A stretch of DNA of 64,000 nt from Propionibacteriaceae bacterium (GCA_009779115.1 WREX01000001.1:10878-74877), one strand, 5' to 3'; positions 12,147 to 35,540 are shown, counted from the first letter of the stretch. The notes: generated by a model not told the origin, from the sequence alone. Numbers and translations are program-made.

Positions 12147-12186
12147 GAGCCGACGGTGATGACGGGAATGAGAATCAGGCATCACT

Positions 12187-13720: not shown

Positions 13721-13738
13721 CACCGTGGGGAGTGTCCA

Positions 13739-18160: not shown

Positions 18161-18316
18161 GGAGACCTGGCGCCAGCCAGCCGTCACCGGGACTCAGGGT
18201 ACGTCCAAGGGGCACTTCGCCAGAACCTAGAGCCAGGGCATCTTCGTAGTGACGCATCCGTTCAGGCCACGCCCCGCGTACTGCTTGTCACGGCGGAAAT
18301 CGGTACTCGTCGTTGG

Positions 18317-19036
18317 TTACTCGTCGTCATCGTGAACGGCGCCAGGGTCGTCCAGCAGGGTGAGGTCTTCCGCGGTCACGAAACCGGTCGACACCGCCCA
18401 CTCGACCAGGCGCGAGCGGCGGCCCGAGGCGTGTTGGCGCACCCCTCCGCGCATCCCGTCCACACCGAGGTTGTCCAATTTCATACAGATATTGTCGATT
18501 TTCTTTTCGTAGCGTTTGACGGACCAGCCGATCCGGTCGGCGGCGTCGGCATTCGAGGGGACATGGATCATCCCGAAGCCTTCACGCCTGAGCGCGGGCT
18601 CAGCCAGGGCCACGACTGCCAGCCGCTGGGCCATGGTCCAGCCCACACCGTCGATCGTGGTCCCCGATTCCGCCGTGGCAGTCCCTATCCCCTCCTGCCA
18701 CAAGGGGATTTCATTCACCAGATGGATTTGGTACGTGCATGGACCGGCGGTGAACACCACGTCGACAGAACCGAACACCAGGGGCAGCCGGGTGGAGGGG
18801 CCCAGCCATGCCTGCAGGCTCGTCTTGCGGTCATAGACGGTGGCCGCCGTCGTGCCGCCGATGTTGACCAGCCACCACAGGTCGTACTCGTACACCAACC
18901 GCAGGAAACGACGATGCAGGTACGGGTTGGCGTCGAGAACCATGTCTGCCTCGCGGCCGATGTCGAACACCTGGCCCGGGCTCACCACGTGCGTCCGTCC
19001 CTCGAACTCGATACGAACAGTCGACTCCTCTGCCAT
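18317..19036 (-). CDS. FHA-like N-terminal domain / C-terminal helix-turn-helix putative regulator
   Basis: Start at ATG 19036 after GGGGAGGA (ORF track extends to 19276). The N-terminus reads VRIEFEGRTHVVSPGQVFDIGREADMVL...LHRRFLRL...NIGG. The C-terminus ADRIGWSVKRYEKKIDNICMKLDNLG...RRSRLVEWAVSTGFVTAEDL resembles a LuxR/GerE-type HTH. Confidence 0.6.
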   Translation of the reverse strand: MAEESTVRIEFEGRTHVVSPGQVFDIGREADMVLDANPYLHRRFLRLVYEYDLWWLVNIGGTTAATVYDRKTSLQAWLGPSTRLPLVFGSVDVVFTAGPCTYQIHLVNEIPLWQEGIGTATAESGTTIDGVGWTMAQRLAVVALAEPALRREGFGMIHVPSNADAADRIGWSVKRYEKKIDNICMKLDNLGVDGMRGGVRQHASGRRSRLVEWAVSTGFVTAEDLTLLDDPGAVHDDDE

Positions 19037-19061
19037 GCGTCCTCCCCTTCGTGTATGGATA

Positions 19062-20762
19062 TCAGGCGACAGCACAACGCCTCGTTGTGTCCGATGGTAC
19101 CCCGTGACGGACGACTTGCACGTCAAGACAAACGTAACTGTCCTGCTCAGGCCAAGCCACCGTGACCGTCGTCTGATCCGTGATTTTAGCGGTGACATCG
19201 GTCGACCCGTCGACGGTGTAACGGTATTGATCACCCTCCTGGGGGTCCGGATTGACCCAGGTGAAGACTGCATCACCCGAAGAATCGTGGGTGCCGGTCA
19301 GATCGGTGACTGCTTGGGGGATGGTGGAATTCACGATGGGATTGTGGGGTGTGGCGGAGGTGGTGGTGGCATCGGGAGGAGGGGGCACGTCAGGAGCGCC
19401 GTGGAGAACCACGACGACCACGGTCACGGCAACAGCGATGATGACGACCGCGAGGGCGACCACACCCCATCGGCGTTTCCCGGGTGACTTAGGCGACCGT
19501 GGCTGAGCAGTCACCGATTCCGCAGGCTCAGGGTGGTCCAGAGTCACCGGGCGTACTTGGGTGGGATCGAGCAACCCGCCGAAGTCCACAGCGGTCGTCG
19601 GATAGGCCGGGTGGGCCATCTTGGAAGTGTTTTTCCTGCCAGGAACCTCGGAAATGGGCAATGAGCCCATACTTGCTAGTGGCAGGTCCTTGACTGGGGC
19701 ATGAGCCACGTCGGTGGCCTGTGCCACCCCCGGGAGGTGGGCCGGGTCGGGTTCCAAGGTGGGATCGATGGTCTGCTCAATGTGGGGGTCGATCACAGTC
19801 AATGGGCGCAGACTCGTCCCCGCTGTCTCGTCATCGCCGATCCGGTCATCGCCGTCAGAATCCTCCAGGATGTCCATCTGGGTCGCCGGCAGGTGGAGTT
19901 CGGCTTCGACCTCGCGCAGGGCCATGCCGAAGGCCTTCATGGAGGGATACCGGGCCTGCGGCGACTTGGCCATGGCAGTGGACAAGACCTGATCCAAGGA
20001 GGCGGGAGCGTCAACCCGGCCGAGCGGGCGGTAGGGAGCATTGCGGATCCTGTCGATCATCACATGTTGCCGATTGTCTCCACCGGGAATCTCGAAGGGG
20101 GGCCTGCCCGTCAGCAAAGCGTACATGGTGGCTGCCAGGCTCCAGATGTCCGATTGGCGGGTCGGACGAGGATTCTTGTCGAAGGACTCGGGCGGGCTCC
20201 ACGGGATCGACATCCCCTGCGCGCCTCCCCTGGAAGCCTCGACATCCGTCATGGCGATACCGAAGTCGCCGAGGACCGGGCGGGAGAAGCGGTCCATCAG
20301 AATATTGGCTGGCTTGACATCCCGGTGCAAAATCCCTTGTGAATCAGTCCCCAGGCCCGGACTCGTGTAGCGATGGGCCGACTCCAAGGCTCCAGCCAAC
20401 TGGATGCCTATCTTGAGGACATTGGCCAAGGACCACCCAGTCTTGCGCAGTCCCTGGGACAGGGCGGCACCCGGGTAGTACTCCATCACCAAGTACGGGC
20501 GCCCGTCCATCGCGACCCCGGAGGAAAAGACTGTCACGATGTTCTGGTGTCCGGACAACCCGGCCATGGCGTCGGCCTCTTTGTTGAGCCGGGCGGCTGC
20601 TTGGCTTCCCGCCATGTCGGCGTGCAAGACCTTCACGGCGACCTGGCGGTGCGGAGTGTCTTGGGAATACAAGTACACGTCGGCGAACCCACCGTGTCCG
20701 AGATCGCGCAGGTAGGAGAAACCGGGAATCTGCGGTGGGGCCTCACGCCGGGTCGAACTCAT
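19062..20762 (-). CDS. Hanks-type Ser/Thr protein kinase, single TM, FN3-like extracellular domain
   Basis: Kinase motifs are LGHGGFADVY, VAVKVL, HRDVKPANIL, DFGIA, SPPE and DIWSLA. A Pro-rich linker follows, then the TM helix WGVVALAVVIIAVAVTVVVVVL. The ectodomain is about 110 aa (AVTDLTGT..AVFTWVNPDP..GDQYRY). Confidence 0.92.
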   Translation of the reverse strand: MSSTRREAPPQIPGFSYLRDLGHGGFADVYLYSQDTPHRQVAVKVLHADMAGSQAAARLNKEADAMAGLSGHQNIVTVFSSGVAMDGRPYLVMEYYPGAALSQGLRKTGWSLANVLKIGIQLAGALESAHRYTSPGLGTDSQGILHRDVKPANILMDRFSRPVLGDFGIAMTDVEASRGGAQGMSIPWSPPESFDKNPRPTRQSDIWSLAATMYALLTGRPPFEIPGGDNRQHVMIDRIRNAPYRPLGRVDAPASLDQVLSTAMAKSPQARYPSMKAFGMALREVEAELHLPATQMDILEDSDGDDRIGDDETAGTSLRPLTVIDPHIEQTIDPTLEPDPAHLPGVAQATDVAHAPVKDLPLASMGSLPISEVPGRKNTSKMAHPAYPTTAVDFGGLLDPTQVRPVTLDHPEPAESVTAQPRSPKSPGKRRWGVVALAVVIIAVAVTVVVVVLHGAPDVPPPPDATTTSATPHNPIVNSTIPQAVTDLTGTHDSSGDAVFTWVNPDPQEGDQYRYTVDGSTDVTAKITDQTTVTVAWPEQDSYVCLDVQVVRHGVPSDTTRRCAVA

Positions 20763-22282
20763 GCCAACTCCTCGATCGTGACCATCAGGTCGTGGCTGAG
20801 GAAGTAGACGTCCTTTTCTTGGGCGATCTCCTGCTGCCCGTCAGTCAGACGGCGGTCGGGTTGCCCGACCCGGCGCAGAATGGTCCCGTTGCGGCCCAGA
20901 CTGGTCACCAGGACACTCCAATCCTCCAGGTCGACCCTCAGGTGGGTCGCCGACACATGGGGATCCTCGACGGTGATCAGGTTGGGGATGTCCAGGTTGG
21001 AGAACCGGGTCGCTTCGGGGCGGCGGCCGATGACGAAGGGATGGTCGATGGGCCTCACATCTCCCCCCGGCAGTTTCAGCCTTCCCAGGATCGGTCGCGG
21101 CACTTGAGTGGCATCGACATCCAGCGGGGAGTCACAGAACCGGCAGGTGACTCGCCGGGTCGAGTTGGCGCTGTGACACCGTGGGCAGATCCGCGCCGAG
21201 ACCATGGGGCCCGCCGGGGACGGAACTGGGCTGGCGGCCACCTGGTCGCCGACCCAGGTGTGGGTGGTCATTCCGTCGTGATCAGTGGAGGGACCTTCGC
21301 CAAAACCCGGTGCCGACATCACCGTCATGCCATCGTGGTCATCCTCGTCCTCGTACGGTTGGTTCGTCCTCGCCAGCCCTGGGTCGTACGCCGGTCCGCC
21401 AGGTGGCGGGGACATGGTCAGTTGAGTCTCGGCGGCGCTTTGAACAGGAGCAGTGGAAGCGGGATTCCCCAGGTCAGGATTCCCAGGGTCGAGATTCTCC
21501 GCTGCCTGATTCGCTGCTGCTGGGCCCTCGAAGAAGGACCGGTACAACGTGGTGTAGTGCAGGTCTTGCTCGTCACGGGATTGGACAGGGGCAGGTGGGG
21601 TACCCGACGGCGGAGTCACTGGTTCACCCTGCGGCGAGCCTGGGTGGGGAGGAGCAGCGGGACCATGGGCCGGGGGCGGGACAGCCGGTACTGGCGACAC
21701 CGGGGCCGCATGACCGGCTGGATTGGACTGCTCACCCTGGGCAGCGACCGCCGCAGGTGAAGGGGTGTCTGGCACATTGAGGGCCGCCAGTCCAGTGCCT
21801 GGGGTACTGGTCACAACACTGTGGACAGGGGCGGAGTCTGACCAGTCCCCTCCCCCCGGGAGCATGTCGATGCAAGAGACTGGCACGATGCCGTCGTTGA
21901 GCACCCAGGAGGGCAGGCCGCCGTCTTCGTCGGCAGCCACACTGAGCTGACTGGGGGCAAGAATCCTGTCTTCTTTCCAGGTCAGGACGTCAGCGCCGCT
22001 GATCAATACTGGTCCCCCAGTGGTCATCGCGCGTACTGACAATGGACCGCGTACTGCGATGTGGATGCCGCCGGATTCGGGCACGGCGATGGCGAAGGCG
22101 GGCAAGGCCGTCAGGTCCGCCGCCGCGTCGCCGACCATCCGCTGGAGGAGCTGGGCGAAACCGCTTCCACTGCGCAGGGCTGCCCATACCGACGTCACCT
22201 TCTCGCCGGTTGAGTCCGGTGCGAGGATGACACAGCCAGATCCCGACACCAGGCCGTACCATTGTCCCGTCGCGTACCTCAT
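20759..22282 (-). CDS. FHA domain protein with zinc ribbon and long Pro-rich linker
   Basis: Start at ATG 22282 overlaps the PP2C stop (ATGA); the ORF track extends to 22534. Zinc ribbon: CPRCHSANSTRRVTCRFC. C-terminal FHA: VIGRRPEA...SATHLRV...GRNGTIL. Confidence 0.8.
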   Translation of the reverse strand: MRYATGQWYGLVSGSGCVILAPDSTGEKVTSVWAALRSGSGFAQLLQRMVGDAAADLTALPAFAIAVPESGGIHIAVRGPLSVRAMTTGGPVLISGADVLTWKEDRILAPSQLSVAADEDGGLPSWVLNDGIVPVSCIDMLPGGGDWSDSAPVHSVVTSTPGTGLAALNVPDTPSPAAVAAQGEQSNPAGHAAPVSPVPAVPPPAHGPAAPPHPGSPQGEPVTPPSGTPPAPVQSRDEQDLHYTTLYRSFFEGPAAANQAAENLDPGNPDLGNPASTAPVQSAAETQLTMSPPPGGPAYDPGLARTNQPYEDEDDHDGMTVMSAPGFGEGPSTDHDGMTTHTWVGDQVAASPVPSPAGPMVSARICPRCHSANSTRRVTCRFCDSPLDVDATQVPRPILGRLKLPGGDVRPIDHPFVIGRRPEATRFSNLDIPNLITVEDPHVSATHLRVDLEDWSVLVTSLGRNGTILRRVGQPDRRLTDGQQEIAQEKDVYFLSHDLMVTIEELA

Positions 22283-23091
22283 GATTGGTCTTTCTCGCCG
22301 GACTGGCCGCCGTCTGCCAGGCCCATCGTGTCGTCGACAGTGGCCCCGCCCGGATCGCCCGCGAAATCCTCCACGTCCACGATAACGACCGACACGTTGT
22401 CGCGCCCGCCCGCGGCCAGGGCGGCGCTGACCAGTTGGGTGACAACCTCGTGGGCCGGGAGCGGTTGGGTGACGATGCGGGCGATCTCGGTCTCGGTCAG
22501 CTCTGTGGTCAGCCCGTCCGAACAGATCATCCACCGCCCAGGACCCATGACCGGAATGAGCCAGTAGTCGGGCCGCTCGACGGTGCGCGCTCCGAGGACC
22601 CGCGTGATGACATTGCGCCGGGAGTACGTCCGGGCTGAAACGGCGTCCAAACGTCCCGCCTCGATCATCTCCTGGGCTTCGGAGTGGTCCACGGACACCT
22701 GGTTGACCGTGTCACCGACGACACGGTAGGTGCGCGAATCCCCCAGATTGATCACCAGCCAGTACGGCCAGCCGTCTTGTCGCACCAGCACGATGCCGCT
22801 GACCGTCGTACCGGCCGCCCTCCACGTGTGCGAAGCCTCCAACGAGTCGATGCTCCAGCGGGCCCGGGTGAGGGCGTCACGGACATCTTCGACGCTGGGG
22901 TCGGCGCCCAGTTTGCTCATCTCATCGATCACGATGGCACTGGCACGGTCACCGGCGTCGTGGCCGCCCATGCCGTCGGCCACGATGAACACAGGGCGTT
23001 CGGCCAAGACGGCGTCCTCGTTGAAGGCACGGCGGTGGCCGATGTCGGTCGCGGAGGCGACACTGAGTTTCACATCATCCAGGACAGTCAT
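22279..23091 (-). CDS. PP2C-family Ser/Thr protein phosphatase
   Basis: ATDIGHRRAFNEDA, VADGMGGHDAG, a GDSR block and a C-terminal DNVSVV. These match PPM/PP2C motifs. Confidence 0.92.
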   Translation of the reverse strand: MTVLDDVKLSVASATDIGHRRAFNEDAVLAERPVFIVADGMGGHDAGDRASAIVIDEMSKLGADPSVEDVRDALTRARWSIDSLEASHTWRAAGTTVSGIVLVRQDGWPYWLVINLGDSRTYRVVGDTVNQVSVDHSEAQEMIEAGRLDAVSARTYSRRNVITRVLGARTVERPDYWLIPVMGPGRWMICSDGLTTELTETEIARIVTQPLPAHEVVTQLVSAALAAGGRDNVSVVIVDVEDFAGDPGGATVDDTMGLADGGQSGEKDQS

Positions 23092-23804
23092 GACTCTCGG
23101 GCCCTCTCAACATGGAATCGTCTGCGTCCCAGGATCAGGGTGTCACCGATCGACAGTCGGACCGGTTCTCCGGGAACCAGGTGGAGGGGCAGGCTCCCCA
23201 TCCGTACAAGATCCGTACCATTGGTGGATCCTCGGTCCTTGAGCCATAACCCCTGGTCATCAAGGCCATACTCGGCGTGGGTCTTCGACAAGGACCGCTC
23301 CGGGTCGTCCACTGCCGTACACACCACGGACGGGTCTGGCGACTCCGGGTTGCGTCCGACCAGGCCGTGGCTGCTCACGTGGATGCGTTGGCCGGTGTCG
23401 AACACCAAATCGATGCTGAGGCTGTCCACGGCAGGGGTGGCCATCGGGGGCCCCGCCACGGCTGGCCGGTCCATCACTGGTCCCGGACGAGGCCCGGTCC
23501 ATCCGCCCGGGGCCAAGACCGTGGAGGCCACGGCGGCCACCGCCGCAGTGGGAGGTGGGCAGACAGCGGTCAGCTGAGTTTGTCCTGTGCGCACGGCAGG
23601 CTCGGGTCGCGGTGTCGACGCCGGTTGAGCCGCCTGGGAAGGGTTGCCATCAGCCTGCCCGTGGTCGAAGAACTCCGGGGTCCTGGTCCCCGGGACATCC
23701 CAGATCAGGAAACCAGCTGGATTCGAGGGGACGGACCGCCCGCAAGCAGGGCAGGCGACGGCTGACTCGGGGATCTGAGCCCCACACTGAGGACATGATC
23801 GCAT
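23088..23804 (-). CDS. FHA domain protein with N-terminal zinc ribbon
   Basis: Start at ATG 23804, 2 nt below the upstream stop; the ORF track extends to 23942. Zinc ribbon: CPQCGAQIPESAVACPACG. A Pro-rich linker follows. FHA: LVGRNPES...SKTHAEY...STNGTDL. Confidence 0.8.
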   Translation of the reverse strand: MRSCPQCGAQIPESAVACPACGRSVPSNPAGFLIWDVPGTRTPEFFDHGQADGNPSQAAQPASTPRPEPAVRTGQTQLTAVCPPPTAAVAAVASTVLAPGGWTGPRPGPVMDRPAVAGPPMATPAVDSLSIDLVFDTGQRIHVSSHGLVGRNPESPDPSVVCTAVDDPERSLSKTHAEYGLDDQGLWLKDRGSTNGTDLVRMGSLPLHLVPGEPVRLSIGDTLILGRRRFHVERARES

Positions 23805-23806
23805 TC

Positions 23807-26101
23807 CTACGGCCCTCCCGGGATCGTGACGGTCGGTTTGGCGTGCCGACGCAAGGATGTCACTGCGATCCTGGCCCGGAATCGCCGCCACCAGGATCGT
23901 GTGTGCCCGAGGTCCGCGGCCGCCAAGACAGCCTGCTGCCACAGAGCATCGGCCTGGGCTGGAGTCGGGGGCGAGGCGCTGAACGTGCCAAGATCGGCTG
24001 CATCGGCCAGCGCATTCATCGTACCCAGAGCAAAAACGCTGGACACGATCGTGGCCGCTTGTCGCCGAGTGGCGGAAGCCGGGATCACAGTGCCGAGGTC
24101 CGCCGCCCGGTCGAGGATCTCCTGCCAGGCGAAGGCCATTCTCCAGGGCAAGCGTGCGTCGGTTCTGCGCCGAGTTCTGCGGGCTGACTTCCAGACGATG
24201 ATGACCACCATCGGCCCCACAATCACGATGAGAGGCACGGCGCCCATCCCGACCAAGGCCAGTACAGTACGCCAGGCGATCGAGTGGTGCTGTTCCTTGT
24301 TTTGGTCCTTGTTCTGCGAGTCAGGATCGGCTTGCAGAGACTGGTCGTCGTGCGAGGTCGTCGATGGCGGAGGCTGGAGGATCTGCGGTTTGGGCTTGGC
24401 TTTCGACTGATTCAACTGTTGCTGGGGTTGTTGGTTCTTGTCGGGTGTGGGGAAAAAGGCGTACCAGCCGACTCCGTCGAAGGGAACCTCCACCCAGGCA
24501 TGGGCATCCGACCCCTTGACCGACCAGGTTGTGCCGTCGAGCGTGGAATCGGCATCGGTTCTGAATCCCATGACCACACGGGCCGGGATCCCGATCTTCA
24601 TCAGCATCAGGGCAGCAGCAACGGCGTATTGCTCATCGTCGCCAACCATCCTGGAGGGATCGGCCAAGAGCTTGTCGATCCGGTACGACGAATGCCCGGG
24701 CAGGGAAGGATCCTCGGATTCCAGGCCGTGGGAGAAGTACCCGGTCGTCCGCAGCGTGCCGACGATGTCATTGACCTGGTCCAGGGCCGAGGTGTCCTCG
24801 CCTGTCCACTGGACCGCCAGCGCCCCGACAGAATCGGGAACCCATTGCGGGGCTGGCAAGGTCACTCGGGCGACAGGTGTTGCCGCAGTGGGAGTCGCCG
24901 TGGGGATCAGAGACTGGACCGTGTACGACGTCCCCGCCGACAGCCCCGTCGGGTCGATCAGGCAGTCCGACTGCGGGTTGTAATACAGCGATGAAGACAG
25001 ATCCTCGGCTTGAGGTCCTGTGAAGGTGAGGCTCCGGTTCTGGCTGAGCGACGGAACCCACACTCCCGAGTAGTCATCGTCCGTGACCGTGACCGTCACC
25101 GGCTGCCCGGGGGAGGGTGCGGGTGAATCGCCCAGATCCGGTCCGACCCGGTCGTAGCGGGAGGCTCCGGTCGCCTCGCCAACGTTGTAGACCATGCCAT
25201 CGTAGGTGTCCATCACGGCCAGGCGCAGCAAGTCATCCTGGCTCCATCCATCCACAGTGAACAAGACATCGTCCTTCTGCGTGTCGACCAGGTTCCGGAA
25301 GGAGATCAAGGGGCTGGCGAAAGCCGTCAGGTCCAGAGGCGGGACAACATGCTTGCGCAAGACATCCCGGTCGATTCCCGTGCAGAGCGCCGGTCCCGCC
25401 ACACCGGCCACCAGAGTGGCCACGCCGAACAGGACCCCAGCCTTGGCCAGCCAGGCTCCCCCGGCCAGGGACGATGGGCGGCGAGTTGCGGACATGGCGC
25501 CGGTGGCCTGGTGGTTACGCCAGACAATCCAGCAGACGCTGACCAGCGACAGGACCACCGACTGGACGGTGGGGAAGAAAGCGTTCGACGTACCCAACAG
25601 GATCACCAGCGCGGTCAGGGCCGCCACCGGGATCAGCGCGACTCCGGGGTGGCGAGCCCGCCAGGCTGCTGAGAACGCGGCCACCGAGGCCACCAGTGTG
25701 AGGATGAAGGGCACGAGCATGAAGGGATAGAAGCTGGCTACCGGAGTTGTGGCGGTGACGAACTGCCGCCACACCGACACTGAGGAGAAAACCAGCGTCT
25801 TCAGACACGCGAGGTTGGGAGCCAGCTGGGCGATTCCCCGGCTCCACAGAGCGGCAGCCGTGCCAAAGACGAAGTACGACACCACTGTCGCCACGGCCAT
25901 CGTGAAGGTCGACCACCGTCGCCAGGCCCCCAGCCAGGCGGCCCCAGCTCCGACGAGGATGCCGAAGACCACTGGCCGGATGAAGCCCGGCCCACCGAAC
26001 ACTGGCCAGAACCCCGCCAGCCCCGCCGCCAGCAAGACCATCACCGCAACGGCGTCGACCGCTGCCGGCCATGTCAGGGTTCGGGGCTTCACTGCTGGCA
26101 T
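23807..26101 (-). CDS. transglutaminase-like domain polytopic membrane protein (TgpA-like)
   Basis: Six or more N-terminal TM helices. The TGase core reads GDDEQYAVAAALMLMKIGIPARVVMGF...DAHAWVEV...FFPTPD, followed by a C-terminal TM and tail. The position normally holding the catalytic Cys is Asp. Confidence 0.8.
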   Translation of the reverse strand: MPAVKPRTLTWPAAVDAVAVMVLLAAGLAGFWPVFGGPGFIRPVVFGILVGAGAAWLGAWRRWSTFTMAVATVVSYFVFGTAAALWSRGIAQLAPNLACLKTLVFSSVSVWRQFVTATTPVASFYPFMLVPFILTLVASVAAFSAAWRARHPGVALIPVAALTALVILLGTSNAFFPTVQSVVLSLVSVCWIVWRNHQATGAMSATRRPSSLAGGAWLAKAGVLFGVATLVAGVAGPALCTGIDRDVLRKHVVPPLDLTAFASPLISFRNLVDTQKDDVLFTVDGWSQDDLLRLAVMDTYDGMVYNVGEATGASRYDRVGPDLGDSPAPSPGQPVTVTVTDDDYSGVWVPSLSQNRSLTFTGPQAEDLSSSLYYNPQSDCLIDPTGLSAGTSYTVQSLIPTATPTAATPVARVTLPAPQWVPDSVGALAVQWTGEDTSALDQVNDIVGTLRTTGYFSHGLESEDPSLPGHSSYRIDKLLADPSRMVGDDEQYAVAAALMLMKIGIPARVVMGFRTDADSTLDGTTWSVKGSDAHAWVEVPFDGVGWYAFFPTPDKNQQPQQQLNQSKAKPKPQILQPPPSTTSHDDQSLQADPDSQNKDQNKEQHHSIAWRTVLALVGMGAVPLIVIVGPMVVIIVWKSARRTRRRTDARLPWRMAFAWQEILDRAADLGTVIPASATRRQAATIVSSVFALGTMNALADAADLGTFSASPPTPAQADALWQQAVLAAADLGHTRSWWRRFRARIAVTSLRRHAKPTVTIPGGP

Positions 26102-27486: not shown

Positions 27487-28454
27487 GGGGTGATCCCGGT
27501 GGTGGGAACGGGCACTTCGGCGAGGACCCGGTCGATGACCAAAGCGGCAGTGACACCGGCGAATTCAGCCTCGGGGTCGAGGATGAGCCGGTGGTCCCAC
27601 ACCTGATGCGCGAGGTCTTTCACATCGTCGCAGGTGACATAAGGCCGCCCTTGGGAGGCCGCCCACACTTTCGCCGTCCTGGTCATGGCCAGAGCCCCTC
27701 GTACTGAGACTGCGATGCGGGTCTGCTCACTCGCGCGGGTCTGCTGGGCCACCGTCGCGATATAGGTCAGTACGGCATCCGCGACGTGCACTGTTGTGGC
27801 GAGATCGGCCATTTCCGCCACTTTGTCGGCGGGGATGACCGGGGAGACCAGAGAGGAACGGTTCTTCACCGCCGCTCCCGACAGGATTTCGACGGTATGG
27901 GCCATGTCCGGGTAGCCGATGGAGGTCTTCATCAAGAAACGGTCTAACTGCGCTTCGGGGAGGCGGTAAGTCCCGGCTTGCTCGATCGGGTTCTGGGTCG
28001 CGATGACCATGAAAGGGCGGCCCACCTTCCGCGTCACGCCATCGACGGTGACCTGGCCCTCCTCCATGACTTCCAGAAGAGCCGACTGGGTCTTGGGCGA
28101 CGCGCGGTTGATCTCATCGGCCAGCAGAATGTGGGTGAACACCGGCCCGGGCAGGAATTCGAAGTCGCCTTTGCGCTGGTCGAAGACTGTCACGCCTGTG
28201 ACATCGGTCGGCAACAGGTCGGGGGTGAATTGGATACGCTTGCTCGTCCCAGCGACGGTGGCCGCCAGCGCCCGGGCCAATTGAGTCTTGCCGGTGCCCG
28301 GGGCATCCTCCAGGAGGATGTGGCCCTCGGCCAGCAGGGCGGTGACCGCGTAGCGTACTTCGCGGTCCTTGCCCAACACGGCCTTGCCAACGTTGGCGAC
28401 GATTTGGGTGACAGCCTGGGCGAACCACTGGGCTTCATCGGGAGTCATGGTCAT
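27483..28454 (-). CDS. MoxR-family AAA+ ATPase
   Basis: Walker A: LLEDAPGTGKTQLA. Walker B: ILLADEINRASPKTQSALLEVMEE. The overall size of 323 aa fits the family. Confidence 0.95.
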   Translation of the reverse strand: MTMTPDEAQWFAQAVTQIVANVGKAVLGKDREVRYAVTALLAEGHILLEDAPGTGKTQLARALAATVAGTSKRIQFTPDLLPTDVTGVTVFDQRKGDFEFLPGPVFTHILLADEINRASPKTQSALLEVMEEGQVTVDGVTRKVGRPFMVIATQNPIEQAGTYRLPEAQLDRFLMKTSIGYPDMAHTVEILSGAAVKNRSSLVSPVIPADKVAEMADLATTVHVADAVLTYIATVAQQTRASEQTRIAVSVRGALAMTRTAKVWAASQGRPYVTCDDVKDLAHQVWDHRLILDPEAEFAGVTAALVIDRVLAEVPVPTTGITP

Positions 28455-28510
28455 GGGTCACGATGTCCTTTCCGGGAGATATCGGCGAGGAGTCGCCAGG
28501 GTTGCCGTTG

Positions 28511-31500
28511 TCATGCGGGTGTACAATCGACAATTTTTGATGAACCTGAATCGCCATGGGCGAACCAGAAGTAGACGGCATGGGTCTGCAAGTTCACGCC
28601 AGCCTTCCATCCTCCCACCATGAAGGTTCCTGAACCGGGATGGACGAAGCACCCGGGGGGCTGGCCGTTGTTCGACCCGCACCCCGAATCGGTGTACTTC
28701 CACCACTGGGTGGCATCCGCCGGCATGTTGGAGAACGTGATGGACACCGATGTGGGCCCGGAGACGTGATACGTACAACTGGGAGGCGCCGGGCAGGCGG
28801 CCGCAGTCGCGCTCGCAGTGGCCACCGAACTGGTCTGCCCTTGGGCGTCGACCGCCCGTACCTGGACGGTGTGGCTCTGCTCACAGGTGCTGCCCACCGA
28901 CTGGGAGCCGTTCGTCGCCCCCACGGATGTCCATCCACCGGAATCGATGTTCACCTCCAGGTTGGAGATCGCCCTCCCGTTCTCCGCCGGCATAGTCCAC
29001 GACACGCTCACTGCATCACCGTTCTGGGATGCGTTGGCGCCAGGCTGATTGGGCGGGCCGTACGGGCGGCAATTCTGGACACTGGTCTTCGGACCATCCT
29101 GGCTGACGGATTGAACAGTGGTTTCAGCCCACACCTGGATGGTGTACCCGGTGTTGCTGTTCGGCAGGGCCGCCGTCCCAGACGTCGACGCACCGAAGGA
29201 GCCCGAGGCACCGTTCGAGGCCTGCCAGCGGTACGACACCTCGGAGGCCTTGGCGCCATTGAGCGGGGCCGCCGTGAAGGACAGCGCACAACTGCCGTTT
29301 TGGTCCGAACTGGTCAGGCCCGACACCGCTCCGGGCGGTACGATCGACCGGAACCCGGCAGACGGGGTCGAGGCCGTCCCTGTCCCAGCCTTGTTGGTCG
29401 CGGAGACAGTGAAGGTGTATTCGTTCTGGCTGGTCGACAAGGTCGTCGTTTGGCAAACCTGGGTCCCGGTGGCAGAGACGGTGTACACATTGCCCGTTGA
29501 CGATGTCAGTGTGTACGTCGAGATCGCTGCCCCGTTATCCGAGGGAGCGTTCCAGCACACCTGTGCCCGGCCCTCATTGCCGACCGGGTCGAGCCGGGTC
29601 CACGTCGGCGCGGACGGAGCGGCAGGCGGACCAGCCGGGGTTTGTTCCATAGAGTACGCCGACCACTGACTGGGATCAGTACACACATCCGGGGCTGAGT
29701 TGACCGCACAGACCTGCACCTTGTAGGCCGTGCCATTTTTCAGCCCGGTCCAGGTGTAGCTGAGCCCCGTCACCCCCGTGACGACCTGCTGGCCGGACGG
29801 CGGCGCCGGAGAAATACGCAGATTGTACGAAGTGATCGGCGACCCGCGACTGGTGCCTGCCGGCCAGGTCACCCTCACGGACTGGTCACCCCAGTTGATC
29901 CCCGGAGTCGGCATGGGGTCGGGGACGGCATCCGGACGTACCTCCTGAGACGCCAGGGAGGGATCGGACACGCCCACCTCGTTCGTCGCCGTGACAGTGA
30001 AGGTATAGGTCGTGTTGTTCGTCAAGCCGTCGAGGACGCAGGTCGTCCCTGGGCACTGTTTGGTGTACCCCGGAACCCCTGTCACCGTGTAGCCGGTGAT
30101 GGCCGCGCCATGGTTATCCGGCGGTGTCCACTTCAACGTGGCCTGCTGATCGCCGATCTGGACCACGCTGACACCGCTGGGCGCGGCGGGGCGTCCTCGC
30201 ACCGTCAGATAAATGCGGCCCTGAGCCTGGCGATCCGGATCCCCGGTCTGGTCCTGGATCGTGTACCGGACCACCATCTGTCCCAGGAAAACATCGGCTG
30301 GAGTCACCAAGACGCCATTGCCGTCGCAGCCCGTGCTGACTGTGCCTTGTCCAGATTCGACGACTGCGCCGACAACACTGAGGTTCGTACCGGGGAAAGG
30401 ATTCACGTCGTTCGCCGTCACCGGCACGCAGGTCGCCACCCCCTGGCTGGCTTTCGGGACCTGGTCGTCAACGGCCACGGGCAGCGGCTTGGTGGTCCCG
30501 ACGACGGTCACAGAAATCTGAGCCTGAGTGGTCGACCGGCCATCGGTGACCTCGACTGTCACCGTGGCTTTCGTCGCCTTGGCCACCGTGATATCGGCGG
30601 CGACAGTCAGTGTCCCACCGCTGATCGCGCTGGTCATCCCCTTGACATTGACCGGCTGGGCCACGGTGAACGACAGGTGACTGGTCGGGTCGGCGCCCTT
30701 CACCAGGGGAGCCAGAGCGACCGGCGCCGACTGTCCCGCTTCGACCGTGACCGAGGCGTTGCCCATCGCAATCACGGGCTGGGGATGGACCTGGTCCGAG
30801 GGCAGAACCGTGACGGGAATCGTGATCATCGTCGTCAGCCCGGTGTCGTCCTCCAGGCTGGTCCCATCGGTCACCTCGACCAGAATGGCCGCGGGACCCG
30901 TGTAATCGGCAGGGGCGTGGAAGGTGACTTGAGTCGAGGAGGGCGCTTCAGCCGACCCGTTCCAGGCCGAGACCTTGTCAGCCTGGGTCACCTTGGGAGT
31001 ACGCCCGGAGCGCACGACGACGTAGTCCGACAAGGACACTGTCACAGACTCACCCTGTTTGACCTGAAGCGGATTGGCGGACGCGTTGAACTGGGGTGGA
31101 ATCGTGTCCACTCCCGGGACGGTGATGAATCCGTGGCCGACCAGGCCATCCGGATCGGTCAGTGAGTAGTCGATGATCTGCAGTTGAGTCGTGATCGGCA
31201 CCGTGACCAGGCCATCGTTGACACTGACAGACGGATCGGCCACCGTGACGTAATCCTGGCTCACGTCACCGTCGGGATCGCGGTCGTTGTCCCGTACTGA
31301 CACGTCCACCGATGTGTGGGTGAGAGCATCAGTCAACGAGACCGTGTCGTCGCCGAGAATCGGGGCTTTCAAGCTGACATCCGGGCTGACCGTCACCGTG
31401 ATGATGCCCGTACTCTGCAAGCCGACGCCGTTGGTGATCGCGTAGGTCCCCCAGTACGACCCGGACTGCCCGGGAGCGGTGATGAGCACATCGTTGCCCT

Positions 31501-34500
31501 GAGTCGTGGCGGTGAAACTGTCGGAGGCTGCCGAGCCGGCCACCAGCGAACAGCATGAGTTGCCATTCGGGTCGACGTCATTGTCGGTTACCGGCACGAT
31601 GACCTGACGCCCCGGCCTGGTCTCCACCGTGTCCGTGACAGCGATGGGGGGTTCGTTCTGGTCACTGGCCGGAGCGATGCCGATCAGGACTTGGCCTGTG
31701 GCTTCCAGCCCCTTGCGGTCGCGGACGACGTAGGTGAAGGAGTCGGCGCCGGTCGTGGTGTCCCCCGGGGAGTAGACGAACCCGGTCGAACTGACGGCGG
31801 TGATCAGCCCCTGGGAAGGAGCCGAGCCTATGCCCACCAGGGAGACGAAGTCACCGTTGGGATCGATGCCGTCGAGCGGAATGGTGACGGCCACCTCACG
31901 TCCGGCCAGTGTGCGTACCTCCACCTGTTTGGGCTTGGGAGCGTCGTTTCCGGTGTCGTCAGAGACGACGTGGATCGTCAGCCGGCCCGTGTCGGGTTCG
32001 GCCGACCCGGTCTGGTTCGCGACCTGGTACAAAGCGGTGTAGGTTCCCGGAGTCTGACGGGCATGGACCCGCACCACGTTGCCGGACGCGAACACCAGGG
32101 CTTCGGTGTCGGGATTGGGAGTCTGGGAAAGATCGGGCAGCAACTTCAGCGGAATCCCATTGGGCTGAGAGTCATTGGCCAGGACGTCGACGGTGGCGAT
32201 GTCGCCCACCCGGACCGTCACCTGGTCGTCTGCGGCCACTGGCGACATGATGCGGTCGGGAGCCGGTATGGGGACCACGGTGACGCGACTGGTGGCGTAC
32301 CCCTTTCCATTGGAGATCGTGTAGTCGAAGCTGACCGGCGAGGTGAAATCCTTCTGGGGGGTGATCTTCACTCGGTCATAATCGATGACCGACACCACGA
32401 ACGGCAGGTCGGCGGTCGCGTCCACCGAGGTCACGACCAAGGGATATCCCATGGGGTTGACGTCATTGTCCAAGACATTGACATAGGTCTCCTGTCCGGC
32501 GGAGACCAGAACCGTGTCCGGAACGGCCACTGGAAGCGCGTCCTGGTCGGGTGCGGGCAGGACGAGAAGGCGAATCCAGCTCTCCTGATTGGTCGAGGGC
32601 CCGTCGGTGACGGTGTACGTCAAGTACACCGACCCCGCTTCGTCACAGACCGCCGTGATGGTTCCCGCGACAGTGTCGGCCGCCACCGAACACCTCGGGT
32701 CCGAACTGACACTGGTCAACTGCAGGGCATCACCGTCCGGATCGGTGTCATTGTCCAACGGATGGATGACGATCTGGGAGCCCACCGTGCCGGAAACTAG
32801 ATCGGGGGTCGGATCGGGAGGCCGGTTCCCCGGCGGCAGGACGTTCACCGTGACCTCGCCATCCGCGACCGTACGTCCATCGGAGACCTGGATGTGAATC
32901 GTTTTCACACCCGTGGAAATCCCGCCGTCCTGAAAAGCCAAAGAGCCGTCTTCCAGGGCCTGGACCGAGTCCTCGGGCGGGCAGGTGGCCCCGACGAGGA
33001 AGATGGTGTCACCGTCTGGGTCACGCCAGTTGGACAAGACGTTGTACGACACCGTGTGGCCACTGGTCACGGTCAACGACGTAGCCCGGATCGGGGCCGG
33101 CGGGTCGTTGACAGCATCGGGATGAACATCCACCTCGACATGGGCGTCCGACGTGCCACCGCGGCCATCCGAGACCTGATAGGTGAAACCGAGTGTTCCC
33201 GACGCAGTGGGAGGAAGGGTCATCTGAAAGACGGATTGGGAATAGACCAAGGATAATTGCGTGCCCGCGGGGGCGTCGCCGACCAGGGAGGCCGTCAACA
33301 GGTCGCCATCCTCGTCGGTGTCGTTCTCCACCACGGGCAAGAGCACAGACGACCCCGGGCGGGCGCCGAACTGGTCGTCCACAGCCTGGGGAGGATGGTT
33401 CTCCGCACTGCGGTCAGGCTTGACAGATTCGTCGATCTCTTCCTTGGCCTGGGTGTCCTGGTCGCCCTTGTCCGCATCCATCATGGAATTCCAGTTGTCC
33501 ACTTTGACCACTCGGTCGGCCACAGACCACACCGCGCCCGAGGTGAGTTCGTTCAGGACGATGTGCCCCCAATTGACGCGAAACCTGAGGTCGCTGGTGG
33601 CGGAGATCGGGCCGATGGTGGTGGTCAGATCATTGCTGTCGCCAGGGCAATCGCGTAGGAAGGCACCGGTGGCAGACCAGACGGCGTACGTGCACCCGTC
33701 GAGTTGGACCGGTGGATTGGCCACCTGGACTCCCCCGGCGTCATCAGCCTGGGTGACACTGGCCTGGCTGCCGTTCAGGGGTTGGGAGACCAGTGCGGTC
33801 GGTGTCTGGTACACCACCGAACTCGCCGCCGCCGAGACCATCTGGAGCGAGACCGAGGTCGCGTCGACTGCCGCTTCATTGGCTTGTACACCCACTGTCT
33901 TCCCGCTGGCCAGGTGGAGCGTGGAATCCTGCTGGCTGAGCAGTACTGGTTGGGCGCCGACCACCGTCATGGCATAGGTTCCATCGGCCAGCAGGCCATT
34001 CATGGCCTGGTCCGTCACGACGGGGTTGGACCCGTCTGAGTCCACGCGTACTGTCTTTTCCACTCCGGCTCCAGGATCGACGACGTATGCCGTCCCGTCC
34101 TGGCCCACGGCCATCACCGCGTTCTTGGGCAGGTCGGTGAGAATGGCTGGCGTGGCTGGCGATTCGGGATCGAAACCTTGGACCATGGCCGCTGGCAGGA
34201 GCCAGAATGAGCCTTTGCCCGGAATCAATATCCCGACCATCCCACCACCCAGTTCGACATCAGTCCCCCCGCCCAGCATCATGGTGTGTCCCAGCGTCAG
34301 GTTCGCCGGGTTGAGCGGAGCGACGGAGCCGTCGTCCCGGTCGACGACAAAAACAGTCGCGCCTTCTTGGAGGACATCGAAATGAGACATGTCTGTGACA
34401 TACGCGATGGAGTCGAGTTGTTGGGCAGCATAGTTGAAACGGCCCACGGCTTGGAGTTGTTGGCTTGTCACCCACACTCCGGAATCGTTCAGATTCACCT

Positions 34501-34612
34501 GCGCGACCGGGAATCCCTGGCCGGCGATGGCCATCGCTGTGAAGCCAGTCGCCAGGACGACGACGGATCCCACAGAAAGGATTTTTCTCCACCAACGAGA
34601 TAGCATCCCCAT
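28511..34612 (-). CDS. giant N-terminally anchored surface protein: putative beta-propeller, about 9 cadherin-like/Ig-like repeats, about 5-6 FN3 domains
   Basis: 2033 aa. TM anchor: ILSVGSVVVLATGFTAMAIAG. Repeated Ca-binding-type motifs include NDTDEDGD, DPDGD, DNDTDPDGD, DNDVDPNG and DNDRDPDGD. FN3 signatures include PSGVSVVQIGDQQATLKWTPP. No LPXTG motif. Confidence 0.85.
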   Translation of the reverse strand: MGMLSRWWRKILSVGSVVVLATGFTAMAIAGQGFPVAQVNLNDSGVWVTSQQLQAVGRFNYAAQQLDSIAYVTDMSHFDVLQEGATVFVVDRDDGSVAPLNPANLTLGHTMMLGGGTDVELGGGMVGILIPGKGSFWLLPAAMVQGFDPESPATPAILTDLPKNAVMAVGQDGTAYVVDPGAGVEKTVRVDSDGSNPVVTDQAMNGLLADGTYAMTVVGAQPVLLSQQDSTLHLASGKTVGVQANEAAVDATSVSLQMVSAAASSVVYQTPTALVSQPLNGSQASVTQADDAGGVQVANPPVQLDGCTYAVWSATGAFLRDCPGDSNDLTTTIGPISATSDLRFRVNWGHIVLNELTSGAVWSVADRVVKVDNWNSMMDADKGDQDTQAKEEIDESVKPDRSAENHPPQAVDDQFGARPGSSVLLPVVENDTDEDGDLLTASLVGDAPAGTQLSLVYSQSVFQMTLPPTASGTLGFTYQVSDGRGGTSDAHVEVDVHPDAVNDPPAPIRATSLTVTSGHTVSYNVLSNWRDPDGDTIFLVGATCPPEDSVQALEDGSLAFQDGGISTGVKTIHIQVSDGRTVADGEVTVNVLPPGNRPPDPTPDLVSGTVGSQIVIHPLDNDTDPDGDALQLTSVSSDPRCSVAADTVAGTITAVCDEAGSVYLTYTVTDGPSTNQESWIRLLVLPAPDQDALPVAVPDTVLVSAGQETYVNVLDNDVNPMGYPLVVTSVDATADLPFVVSVIDYDRVKITPQKDFTSPVSFDYTISNGKGYATSRVTVVPIPAPDRIMSPVAADDQVTVRVGDIATVDVLANDSQPNGIPLKLLPDLSQTPNPDTEALVFASGNVVRVHARQTPGTYTALYQVANQTGSAEPDTGRLTIHVVSDDTGNDAPKPKQVEVRTLAGREVAVTIPLDGIDPNGDFVSLVGIGSAPSQGLITAVSSTGFVYSPGDTTTGADSFTYVVRDRKGLEATGQVLIGIAPASDQNEPPIAVTDTVETRPGRQVIVPVTDNDVDPNGNSCCSLVAGSAASDSFTATTQGNDVLITAPGQSGSYWGTYAITNGVGLQSTGIITVTVSPDVSLKAPILGDDTVSLTDALTHTSVDVSVRDNDRDPDGDVSQDYVTVADPSVSVNDGLVTVPITTQLQIIDYSLTDPDGLVGHGFITVPGVDTIPPQFNASANPLQVKQGESVTVSLSDYVVVRSGRTPKVTQADKVSAWNGSAEAPSSTQVTFHAPADYTGPAAILVEVTDGTSLEDDTGLTTMITIPVTVLPSDQVHPQPVIAMGNASVTVEAGQSAPVALAPLVKGADPTSHLSFTVAQPVNVKGMTSAISGGTLTVAADITVAKATKATVTVEVTDGRSTTQAQISVTVVGTTKPLPVAVDDQVPKASQGVATCVPVTANDVNPFPGTNLSVVGAVVESGQGTVSTGCDGNGVLVTPADVFLGQMVVRYTIQDQTGDPDRQAQGRIYLTVRGRPAAPSGVSVVQIGDQQATLKWTPPDNHGAAITGYTVTGVPGYTKQCPGTTCVLDGLTNNTTYTFTVTATNEVGVSDPSLASQEVRPDAVPDPMPTPGINWGDQSVRVTWPAGTSRGSPITSYNLRISPAPPSGQQVVTGVTGLSYTWTGLKNGTAYKVQVCAVNSAPDVCTDPSQWSAYSMEQTPAGPPAAPSAPTWTRLDPVGNEGRAQVCWNAPSDNGAAISTYTLTSSTGNVYTVSATGTQVCQTTTLSTSQNEYTFTVSATNKAGTGTASTPSAGFRSIVPPGAVSGLTSSDQNGSCALSFTAAPLNGAKASEVSYRWQASNGASGSFGASTSGTAALPNSNTGYTIQVWAETTVQSVSQDGPKTSVQNCRPYGPPNQPGANASQNGDAVSVSWTMPAENGRAISNLEVNIDSGGWTSVGATNGSQSVGSTCEQSHTVQVRAVDAQGQTSSVATASATAAACPAPPSCTYHVSGPTSVSITFSNMPADATQWWKYTDSGCGSNNGQPPGCFVHPGSGTFMVGGWKAGVNLQTHAVYFWFAHGDSGSSKIVDCTPA

Positions 34613-34848
34613 GACATTACCCCTTGTTCCCTGGCCTGCCGCCCTCCAGGTATCGCACGAATCCTAGGCAGACCTCAAGTCTCCAGACACGATGCTAACA
34701 CACCTCACCAATGCTGCTTCCATGGGGATTAATCCCTATCAAGCCCGGATTCACCGATTGCTGGCGTCGCAGCCGGTGCATTCGGGGCCAGCCCGGATCC
34801 ACTGGCAGCAATAACTGTGGAATTGACAGATCACGTAGAATTGCTTTC

Positions 34849-35088
34849 ATGACACGGGGTCTTCCGTTACTGCTCTTCATCGCGTGCACGATCTACACAG
34901 CTGTGCACGTGGTCCAGTCCGACTCCGAGCGAGTACGGGTGTTGCCGAAATTCCTCTGGCTGGTCATCGTCCTCGTCGTGCCTATCTTCGGAATGGTGGC
35001 CTGGTGGATTTTCGGGCGTCCGATCGACACCGGGTCCCTGCCGCCCCAAGCCCCGGATGACGACGCCGACTTCTTACGGCGTCTGTGA
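34849..35088 (+). CDS. small PLD-nuclease-N-terminal (PLDc_N) domain membrane protein
   Basis: 79 aa from ATG 34849: MTRGLPLLLFIACTIYTAVHVV...KFLWLVIVLVVPIFGMVAWWIFGRP. A TAGAAT hexamer ends 7 nt upstream of the ATG, so the mRNA may be leaderless. Confidence 0.65.
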   Translation: MTRGLPLLLFIACTIYTAVHVVQSDSERVRVLPKFLWLVIVLVVPIFGMVAWWIFGRPIDTGSLPPQAPDDDADFLRRL

Positions 35089-35090
35089 CA

Positions 35091-35540
35091 TCAATCGTCG
35101 CGGACCGTCAACGCCCATGAATCCGTGCCGAGCGCATAGGCTCCACGCCAGGGCCCATCCTGAAAGGTCACGCCACCGGGCGCATTGCCCGTGATGGCCC
35201 AGCCCAGACCCGGAAGAGTCTGGGTGAGGTACTCCTGCACGTCAGAAGCCTGGGCCGCTGGTCCGACCACGATCAACAGATTCGGCTGATCAGCGGTGTA
35301 CGTCAGTGTCACTCCTGCCGGGAGCCAGATGTCATTCGCAGGCCCGTTGGCCAATCCGAGTTGGGACAAGGACCGGCCATGGTCAGGCAGGACGACCGGT
35401 GTGCTCGGTGTGGAGCCAGCCTGGCCCGAAGCCTGAGAACATCCCGAAACGCCGCTCGCGAGGGCTCCGACTACCACCCAGGCGAGAATCGTCGTCACGA
35501 CGCCCGGCAGGTGCCGGTGTCGTTCGATGCTCACTGGCAC
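35091..35540 (-). CDS. hypothetical lipoprotein
   Basis: Signal peptide with lipobox ALASGVSGC. 149 aa. No family recognised. Confidence 0.6.
   Translation of the reverse strand: MPVSIERHRHLPGVVTTILAWVVVGALASGVSGCSQASGQAGSTPSTPVVLPDHGRSLSQLGLANGPANDIWLPAGVTLTYTADQPNLLIVVGPAAQASDVQEYLTQTLPGLGWAITGNAPGGVTFQDGPWRGAYALGTDSWALTVRDD

Follow-up and report, generated by a model that had tools for sequence, protein, structure and literature searches.

What is encoded by a cluster that brings a giant surface protein together with a Ser/Thr kinase, a phosphatase and several FHA proteins, and how is it related to the locus beside it that resembles a type VII secretion system (T7SS)? This question is raised by a 64,000-nt stretch of DNA from an uncultured Propionibacteriaceae metagenome-assembled genome (MAG), hereafter the window, in which positions are counted from the first letter. 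An open reading frame (ORF) table, translations, and a survey of start codons and ribosome-binding sites placed nine co-directional genes (g1–g9) on the minus strand between 34612 and 18317. This nine-gene block meets a T7SS-like block on the plus strand (9376–18160) tail-to-tail. With a probability of about 0.75, we interpret the nine genes as an Esx-linked, Esr2-like pathway of the epibiont sensing and response (Esr) type and as the same kind of cluster as the PFNA cluster of bifidobacteria. The assignment is based on operon coupling, the gene-by-gene match of domains, intact kinase and phosphatase motifs, the phosphothreonine (pThr) pocket of the FHA domain in the adjoining EssC-like ATPase, synteny across genomes, and published experiments.

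Composition of the nine-gene cluster

Esr was defined in Schaalia odontolytica F0309 (Wang et al., Mougous lab, bioRxiv, 9 Sep 2026; PMC13622651). EsrA is exported by Sec and contains about 14 Ig-like repeats and an N-terminal WD40-type beta-propeller, with no LPXTG motif. The other components are a MoxR protein, a vWA protein, the transglutaminase EsrD, the kinase EsrE, the phosphatase EsrF, and the FHA protein EsrG, which consists of a pseudophosphatase-like N-domain, a disordered linker bearing Thr, and an FHA domain at the C-terminus and is found in at least 13 architectures, among them zinc-finger forms and fusions to EccC. In S. odontolytica, both the transcriptional response and the Thr phosphorylation that epibionts induce in EsrG1 depend on EsrA1. 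The esrD1 mutant releases EsrA1, and covalent anchoring by EsrD was proposed, with no discussion of its active site. The Esx-adjacent Esr2 is needed post-translationally for the secretion of AesA/AesB, not of EsxA/B. A total of 3502 Esr pathways were reported, prevalent in Actinomycetales and Propionibacteriales, of which 40% are immediately adjacent to esx genes (PMC13622651).

The component set of the window matches that of Esr: an EsrA-like giant protein (g1), MoxR and DUF58 proteins encoded next to this putative sensor (g2 and g3), a transglutaminase-like protein (g4), and a Ser/Thr kinase (STK; g8) with a PP2C phosphatase (g6). As described for Esr, whose range includes Propionibacteriales, the cluster lies immediately adjacent to an EccC/WXG100 locus. 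The junctions from g1 through g9 were, in order, +56, -4, -1, +2, -4, -4, -4, and +25 nt, and terminator-like hairpins across 17900–35900 were no commoner than in shuffled sequence (6 found vs. 7.4 expected). These data bear out the original prediction, made from the sequence of this DNA, of nine co-directional genes separated by gaps or overlaps of no more than 56 nt, with no internal terminator-like gap.

The giant protein g1 has a Sec-type signal peptide at aa 10–31 (site AIA/GQ), and the hydrophobicity and motif scan of the whole protein detected neither an LPXTG motif nor a C-terminal transmembrane (TM) helix. Its fn3 modules are a minority among its repeats, the rest being Big_9 and cadherin-like according to Pfam, which gave no match in the first ~400 residues. 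This N-terminal domain (~370 aa) is conserved at 30–45% identity in 67 loci of the genome survey described below, and its profile matched designed beta-propellers in the PDB (Cake6, E 3e-7; Cake5, E 7e-6). An AlphaFold2 model of the domain, built from a two-sequence alignment, was all-beta with ~28 short strands and of low confidence (pLDDT 55, pTM 0.53); the best 50 Foldseek matches obtained with this model were all beta-propellers. With moderate confidence, we regard the N-terminal domain of g1 as a predicted beta-propeller.

The signalling enzymes retain their characteristic motifs. The kinase g8 matched Pkinase (Pfam, E 1e-32) with intact VAVK, HRD, and DFG motifs, and the metal-binding motifs of the phosphatase g6 (DGMGGH, GDSR, SDG, and DN) are intact. 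A single TM helix (aa 430–460) connects g8 to an ectodomain of ~105 aa, which could be aligned in ~27 of 69 loci and gives the impression of being beta-rich from its sequence pattern. The original prediction had placed FN3-like modules on both the giant protein and the kinase ectodomain. The former were confirmed by Pfam fn3 matches, and the latter found no support: the ectodomain had no Pfam match at E<=1, its BLAST comparison with the fn3 region of g1 gave E 0.84, and hhalign returned a probability of 1.5%.

Two of the FHA proteins carry disordered linkers. In g7, a conserved N-domain found in 66 loci is followed by a 227-residue Pro/Ala-rich disordered linker (18% Pro, 17 Thr), a zinc ribbon, and, at the C-terminus, an FHA domain; from the linker onwards, this layout resembles that of EsrG. 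The shorter g5 consists of a zinc ribbon, a disordered linker, and an FHA domain in which the pThr-pocket residues are present (GR, SKTH, and NG). At the position of g5 in Micrococcales (locus L081, 2608–4632; locus L013, 12355–13590), an RDD-family membrane domain is fused to FHA, so that the first FHA protein is membrane-anchored in those lineages.

The third FHA protein, g9, had no Pfam match and was assigned by structural prediction. Its AlphaFold2 model (pLDDT 87) showed an N-terminal FHA fold and a C-terminal five-helix domain. Foldseek output for g9 was dominated by the FHA half, and the N-terminal half yielded FHA matches at probability 1.0, including FHA-1 of Rv1747 (E 5e-6). The Gly-Arg, His, and Asn-x-Gly residues of the FHA domain are kept, and the pocket Ser is missing. 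The label FHA/HTH originally given to g9 therefore held for its first part. For the helix-turn-helix (HTH) part, the sequence pattern of the C-terminal domain is HTH-like, but per-sequence Pfam and PDB profile searches were not significant; HTH_8 matched 2 of 19 g9-family sequences at E 0.015, which was likewise not significant. Homologues of g9 are 45–73% identical and annotated as "hypothetical", and the family comprises 910 representatives at 50% clustering in a library of 1.84 billion proteins, mostly stand-alone and 230–260 aa long. Of 80 loci, 59 have the gene, and in each of them it either lies between those for the kinase and EssC or closes the cluster; this fixed position between kinase and EssC suggests an adaptor role. 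Within the literature searched, a g9-like gene is unmentioned in the Esr (PMC13622651), PFNA, and T7SSd papers.

Of the remaining proteins, g2 matched AAA_3 (Pfam, E 8e-62) and bpMoxR (E 9e-9), has Walker A (GTGKT) and Walker B (LLADE) motifs, and is 60–78% identical across related loci. The DUF58 match of g3 had an E value of 5e-11, and the TM scan detected two N-terminal helices; a motif search of g3 found no DxSxS metal-ion-dependent adhesion site (MIDAS) motif.

The transglutaminase-like protein g4 departs from its best solved relative at the active site. It shares a TgpA_N polytopic N-terminus and a transglutaminase-like core with TgpA of Pseudomonas aeruginosa, its best solved relative (PDB ID: 6G49; E 8e-11). 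In a phmmer alignment with the periplasmic domain of 6G49, however, G-F-C-A-H-Y-A of TgpA paired with G487-D-D-E-Q-Y-A493 of g4, placing Asp489 at the Cys position, and the Asp of GWLSVDPT in TgpA paired with a Phe, whereas His534 of g4 (DAHAWVE) is kept. We take this Cys to be the catalytic nucleophile of TgpA and the Asp of GWLSVDPT to be a member of a Cys-His-Asp triad. The triad of thiol transglutaminase/TgpA enzymes is incomplete in g4, with Asp489 in place of Cys and Phe in place of Asp. The substitution is shared by the closest homologues: the Cys-equivalent site read GD[DG]EQ[YF] in all 120 best homologues and contained Cys in none, the same motif was invariant in a 17-sequence alignment of the transglutaminase-like protein, and a pattern search with it returned hundreds of genomes. 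In one Propionibacteriaceae relative (locus L082, 3159–5349), the gene appears as two separate ORFs, one of 324 aa (TgpA_N) and one of 415 aa (Transglut_core), which may reflect a frameshift or an assembly error.

Linkage to EssC across genomes

The original prediction of a T7SS-like locus joined tail-to-tail to the nine-gene block was upheld by an EccC/EssC-family ATPase gene, separated from g9 by a 156-nt spacer, and by a WXG100 gene farther upstream. The closest solved relatives of this EssC are EccC of T. curvata (E 3e-69) and YukB of B. subtilis (E 2e-58), along with mycobacterial EccC5. Besides two TM helices, there are three FtsK-like P-loop domains: Pfam FtsK_SpoIIIE covers two stretches, to which a further P-loop is added. 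Its FHA domain (aa 127–188) keeps the pThr-pocket Arg, Ser, His, and Asn (GR, SSIH, and NG). The locus thus combines the generic features of a T7SS, a multi-P-loop EccC/EssC membrane ATPase and a nearby WXG100 protein.

To compare neighbourhoods, as had been proposed with the original prediction, one genome per GTDB species was scanned with an alignment of the transglutaminase-like protein, and the resulting 80 loci, with 10-kb flanks, were searched by tblastn with all window proteins. This sample is biased towards relatives of the window transglutaminase-like protein. Loci with the kinase and at least 3 kb beyond it were considered informative (68 loci); 11 of the 80 end before the kinase. 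Order and orientation were the same in most loci, with g1–g9 in a common order in about 60–70 of the 80 (g1 in 73, g2 in 76, g3 in 79, g5–g8 in 69–71, and g9 in 59). The 68 informative loci belong to Micrococcales, Propionibacteriaceae, and other groups, and in 50 of them an EssC-like gene adjoined the cluster, aligned from residue 1 at 32–72% identity (34–72% for full-length homologues). EssC was a co-directional tenth gene directly after g9 in 49 of these, at a median gap of ~60 nt; in the remaining one, a Propionibacteriaceae MAG, it was convergent, as in the window. EssC linkage is conserved and not peculiar to the window genome, so that the uniqueness which would have counted against the original prediction is clearly absent; its occurrence in 50 of 68 informative loci marks it as an ancient and common trait of the family. 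The same survey argues against the two blocks being neighbours by chance, a reading that we reject. No EssC was found in the other 18 informative loci (26%); in Microbacterium sp. Root166, for example, unrelated genes follow the cluster.

Individual loci illustrate the variation in layout. Brachybacterium has DUF58-TGase-(RDD+FHA)-PP2C-FHA-STK-g9-EssC-WXG100 and three small genes, all co-directional (TGase, transglutaminase-like protein), and a Bifidobacteriaceae MAG has MoxR-giant-DUF58-TGase-x-PP2C-FHA-STK-g9-EssC. Two further Propionibacteriaceae contigs reproduce, gene for gene, the convergent layout of the window and its six-gene T7SS block. The window is not a simple inversion of the Micrococcales layout: WXG100 follows EssC in Brachybacterium, whereas in the window the candidate substrates precede EssC and the 3' ends of the two blocks abut. 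The cluster of Leifsonia sp. AG29 (locus L084, 6354–20753) is permuted to PP2C-FHA-STK-g9-giant-MoxR-DUF58-TGase, with the kinase before the giant gene, as in bifidobacterial PFNA. This cluster has no EssC within reach, and a phage-type integrase gene and a barstar gene lie just upstream.

The original prediction had also, correctly, likened the gene content to the PFNA cluster of Bifidobacterium, which is listed as pkb2-fn3-aaa-atp-duf58-tgm-prpC-hyp-fha (Nezametdinova/Danilenko; PMC8430577). PFNA is co-transcribed as an operon in B. longum and was called unique to bifidobacteria (PMC8430577). All five PFNA gene types that were checked occur co-directionally in the window, and the order fn3-MoxR-DUF58-tgm-...-prpC-...-fha is common to both. 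Nevertheless, the kinase stands first in PFNA, before fn3, and eighth in the window, with the Leifsonia permutation as an intermediate; g1 is far larger than the two-FN3 protein of B. longum and carries the predicted propeller; and a T7SS link is unmentioned in the PFNA papers. The supposed restriction to bifidobacteria is contradicted by homologous clusters in Propionibacteriaceae MAGs and many genera of Micrococcales. The host of the window is itself not a Bifidobacterium, as originally argued from its menaquinone genes, because menD, menC, menA, and menE lie at 4089–9029 and the closest relatives of g4 come from Propionibacteriaceae MAGs. The g4 protein is 85% identical to one such MAG protein, and the next ~30 matches are Propionibacteriaceae or metagenome proteins; relatives from ~40% identity down belong to Microbacterium, Isoptericola, Promicromonospora, Cellulosimicrobium, Oerskovia, and Agreia (Micrococcales) and to Bifidobacteriaceae MAGs. 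Two literatures are joined in this way, in that PFNA, long read as a bifidobacterial host-cytokine sensor, is of the same kind as a widespread actinobacterial threat sensor tied to T7SS.

The proposed functional coupling of the two blocks is supported both by this synteny and by the control of Esx substrates by Esr2 (PMC13622651). The junction itself had been presented as new, and it is not: 40% of Esr pathways are esx-adjacent (PMC13622651), and the link was widespread in our survey. The locus is real and coherent, and its central claim, the link between cluster and T7SS, is already published. Its significance would lie in extending Esr-Esx coupling from the oral Schaalia to uncultured Propionibacteriaceae, in a compact layout of nine plus six genes. 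We found no other paper describing an Esr-Esx system in the literature searched, and PFNA, T7SSd, Bifidobacterium, a ubiquitin-like domain, and a catalytic cysteine all go unmentioned in the Esr preprint (PMC13622651). Beyond the literature searched are the Cys-less core of the g4 clade, the g9 family, a possible ubiquitin-like N-terminus of EssC, and the connection among PFNA, Esr, and T7SSd.

Proposed mechanism and competing explanations

Starting from the gene order and coupling, domains, catalytic and pocket residues, propeller and FHA folds, and EssC synteny of the locus, we propose the following mechanism. After Sec-dependent export, g1 would be displayed on the surface in the form of a long Ig/cadherin/FN3 stalk, whose distal beta-propeller would bind an extracellular ligand; by analogy, this may be some trait of an epibiont or competitor that attacks the cell. 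Retention of g1 at the surface would fall to g4, the TgpA-like membrane protein, and the state of the sensor would be coupled to g8, the one-pass kinase, by g3 (a DUF58/vWA protein anchored in the membrane) together with g2 (the MoxR ATPase). The targets of g8, whose action the PP2C phosphatase g6 would oppose, would be threonines in the disordered linkers of g7 and probably also of g5, both FHA proteins. Interactions of pThr with FHA domains among g5, g7, g9, and EssC would then gate the adjacent minimal T7SS and its candidate substrates (9376–13720), and export of a subset of substrates would be switched on post-translationally. We infer that the locus behaves like Esr of S. odontolytica, that the steps from sensor to kinase follow this order, and that g5 and g9 take these roles.

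Several points weigh against the Esr assignment. Orthology to the Esr proteins of S. odontolytica is deduced from architecture and synteny, and the propeller model of g1 has a low pLDDT of 55. A 66-locus multiple sequence alignment of the g7 N-domain showed no significant similarity to that of the g6 PP2C domain (hhalign probability 1.3%), and a pseudophosphatase-like N-domain, as in EsrG, is left without sequence-level support. The locus further differs from Esr2 of S. odontolytica in its three separate FHA proteins, including g9, for which the preprint describes no counterpart, and in a T7SS block that is convergent rather than integrated. The GYNVP motif of AesB is also missing: a search for the AesB-type pattern GY[NV][VN]P in all six frames of the window found none, so any regulated substrates would differ from AesB. 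The informative loci without EssC indicate that control of Esx is not the sole output of the family. Finally, a g4 that has neither the catalytic Cys nor the triad Asp is a misfit with the covalent anchoring proposed for EsrD; judging from the aligned residues, a classical thiol transglutaminase cross-link does not fit g4 as the anchoring mechanism.

The replacement of the nucleophilic Cys by Asp everywhere examined raises the possibility that the EsrD/Tgm-like proteins of this large clade are pseudoenzymes or non-thiol enzymes, in which case something other than a classical transglutaminase cross-link would hold the sensor in place. We advance this tentatively, as part of a broader and rather doubtful proposal in which g9 would be the missing adaptor to EssC or to transcription, and PFNA, Esr, and a T7SSd-like minimal T7SS, its EssC fused to a ubiquitin-like domain, would be one ancestral ten-gene sensor-secretion supersystem to which three literatures have given separate descriptions. 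If confirmed, the Cys-less core and the FHA-helical g9 would alter the view of the pathway, and both are targets for mutagenesis.

The main rival to the Esr assignment is a structural role resembling that of T7SSd, a system of Actinomycetota defined by WXG100, an FHA-ATPase with a pThr pocket, a membrane STK, the one-TM protein TsdH, and the giant Ig-like TsdI (Garrett, Higginson & Palmer 2024; PMC11217815). In this view, g1 would span the thick wall as a conduit or a targeting fibre, the role that Garrett et al. suggested for TsdI (PMC11217815), the kinase would take the place of the EssB pseudokinase, and there would be no separate sensory pathway. The window shares most of the defining set, since EssC has an N-terminal FHA domain with the pThr-binding consensus, as required of TsdC, and the one-pass STK, the WXG100 protein, and a giant Sec-exported Ig-like protein are present. 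Moreover, T7SSd itself contains no EccB, EccD, EccE, or MycP, and no gene of the T7SS block had a Pfam match to EccB, EccD, EccE, MycP, EssA, EssB, or EsaA, and among these genes only that for the 463-aa candidate substrate encodes TM helices besides EssC, so something else must complete the machine; EssC as the tenth gene of one co-directional array in Micrococcales and the Bifidobacteriaceae MAG would also suit a structural role. We nonetheless consider it unlikely. The full cluster occurs without EssC nearby in 18 of 68 loci, the permuted Leifsonia cluster among the family has none in reach, and the S. odontolytica esrA2 mutant still secretes EsxA/B, which makes the sensor dispensable for basal secretion (PMC13622651). 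In addition, g1 has no C-terminal TM helix of the TsdI type, the block yielded no small gene for a one-TM protein, and MoxR, DUF58, TGase, PP2C, and separate FHA proteins are all absent from the definition of T7SSd. TsdD has a helical ectodomain, whereas that of g8 is short and, to judge by its sequence pattern, seems beta-rich; and no ubiquitin-like component was found in T7SSd (PMC11217815), whereas the window EssC may, on weak evidence, carry one at its N-terminus.

The direction of signalling separates the Esr assignment from the original prediction, in which MoxR, DUF58, and TGase may assemble or remodel the giant protein under Ser/Thr phosphorylation, making that protein the output rather than the input. 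MoxR-vWA pairs do act as chaperone or maturation systems elsewhere (PMC12067865), the MoxR ATPase of PFNA was reported to be an in vitro substrate of Pkb2, and EsrA is released upon deletion of EsrD (PMC13622651). However, in S. odontolytica neither the phosphorylation of EsrG nor the downstream response survives the loss of esrA, which places the giant protein upstream of the kinase as a sensor, with the TGase-like protein retaining it (PMC13622651), and the four FHA modules and the adjacency of EssC point to a cytoplasmic or secretion output. Control of giant-protein assembly by phosphorylation is thus not supported, and we regard it as improbable; the earlier reading was probably wrong on the direction of signalling. 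Less probable still is the host communication attributed to PFNA, with an FN3 protein that binds host cytokines such as TNF-alpha, adhesion, and species-specific kinase signalling. The homologous gene content would favour it, as would the in vitro binding of TNF-alpha reported for bifidobacterial FN3 fragments. Against it, the cluster that was called unique to bifidobacteria is widely distributed among Propionibacteriaceae MAGs and Micrococcales of soil, plant, and environmental origin, most loci are T7SS-linked, fn3 modules are a minority of the g1 repeats, and the distal domain is the predicted propeller.

The cluster can also be compared with the MoxR-vWA ternary conflict systems (Kaur, Burroughs, Iyer & Aravind; as cited in PMC13622651 and PMC12067865). 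Such systems combine MoxR and vWA proteins with a variable sensor, which can be a beta-propeller, and with STK/FHA outputs, and the bpMoxR family matched g2; the window locus differs in that no polymorphic toxin or classical effector domain is fused in it. Esr clusters were missed by that study, according to Wang et al. (PMC13622651).

The secretion block and its surroundings

Coordinates of the nine-gene cluster and of the T7SS block are given in Table 1. Five translationally coupled genes precede EssC, the WXG100 gene being the first. The protein encoded at 11148–12146 had a weak match to WXG100_2 (Pfam, E 0.014), and its long Pro/Gly-rich tail of GPYPPx repeats corresponds to an 18-nt tandem array at 11490–12019 (29.4 copies by Tandem Repeats Finder). 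The 463-aa protein matched T7SS_signal below the cut-off (Pfam, E 1e-4) and is conserved in the Propionibacteriaceae loci L082 and L083. The two soluble proteins, which are translationally coupled, are 37–42% identical to proteins at the same positions in these two loci.

Table 1. Features of the nine-gene cluster and the adjoining T7SS block (positions counted from the first letter of the window)
Feature	Position	Strand	Length	Pfam matches and remarks
WXG100/EsxA-like protein	9376-9672	+	98 aa	WXG100 (PF06013), E 2.8e-17
Soluble protein, T7SS block	9669-10268	+	199 aa	No Pfam match
Soluble protein, T7SS block	10265-11146	+	~293 aa	No Pfam match
Candidate T7SS substrate	11148-12146	+		WXG100-like helical N-terminus; ~29 GPYPPx hexapeptide repeats
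Candidate T7SS substrate	12329-13720	+	463 aa	Helical LXG/T7SS_signal-like N-domain; two TM helices; C-terminal domain
EccC/EssC-family T7SS ATPase	13739-18160	+	1473 aa	FHA, FtsK_SpoIIIE
Convergent spacer, EssC stop to g9 stop	18161-18316		156 nt	
g9, two-domain protein	19036-18317	-	239 aa	No Pfam match
g8, Hanks-type Ser/Thr kinase, EsrE/Pkb2-like	20762-19062	-	566 aa	Pkinase
g7, EsrG-like output protein	22282-20759	-	507 aa	FHA
g6, PP2C/PPM Ser/Thr phosphatase, EsrF/PrpC-like	23091-22279	-	270 aa	PP2C, PP2C_2
g5, zinc-ribbon and FHA protein	23804-23088	-	238 aa	Zn_Ribbon_1, FHA
g4, TgpA-like polytopic membrane protein, EsrD/Tgm-like	26101-23807	-	764 aa	TgpA_N, Transglut_core
g3, DUF58 (vWA-like) protein	27486-26101	-	461 aa	DUF58
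g2, MoxR-family AAA+ ATPase	28454-27483	-	323 aa	AAA_3, AAA_lid_2, bpMoxR
g1, giant surface protein, EsrA-like	34612-28511	-	2033 aa	Big_9, Cadherin_4/5, fn3 repeats

The first 95 residues of EssC (13739–14023), ahead of its FHA domain, have a sequence pattern reminiscent of ubiquitin/YukD, and homologues show a similar one. Pfam YukD matched this region in 4 of 23 homologues (best E 0.014), and a PDB entry named "redesigned ubiquitin" matched at E 0.026; these weak matches are suggestive of a ubiquitin-like/beta-grasp N-terminus. In the spacer between EssC and g9, the hairpin scan of 17900–35900 called no terminator-like hairpin.

The two blocks form an island of ~9.4–34.6 kb. On the left, the menaquinone biosynthesis genes, on the minus strand, abut the WXG100 end of the T7SS block, and the right flank consists of housekeeping genes. 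Scans of the window for tRNA genes and Rfam families found nothing, and PADLOC returned generic kinase, AAA, and PP2C matches only. Farther to the right, a run of glycosyltransferase genes (GT1 and GT2 families) at ~50000–62500 has a lower G+C content of about 0.60 and may be a cell-wall polysaccharide locus; Esr in Schaalia induces cell-wall polysaccharide genes (PMC13622651).

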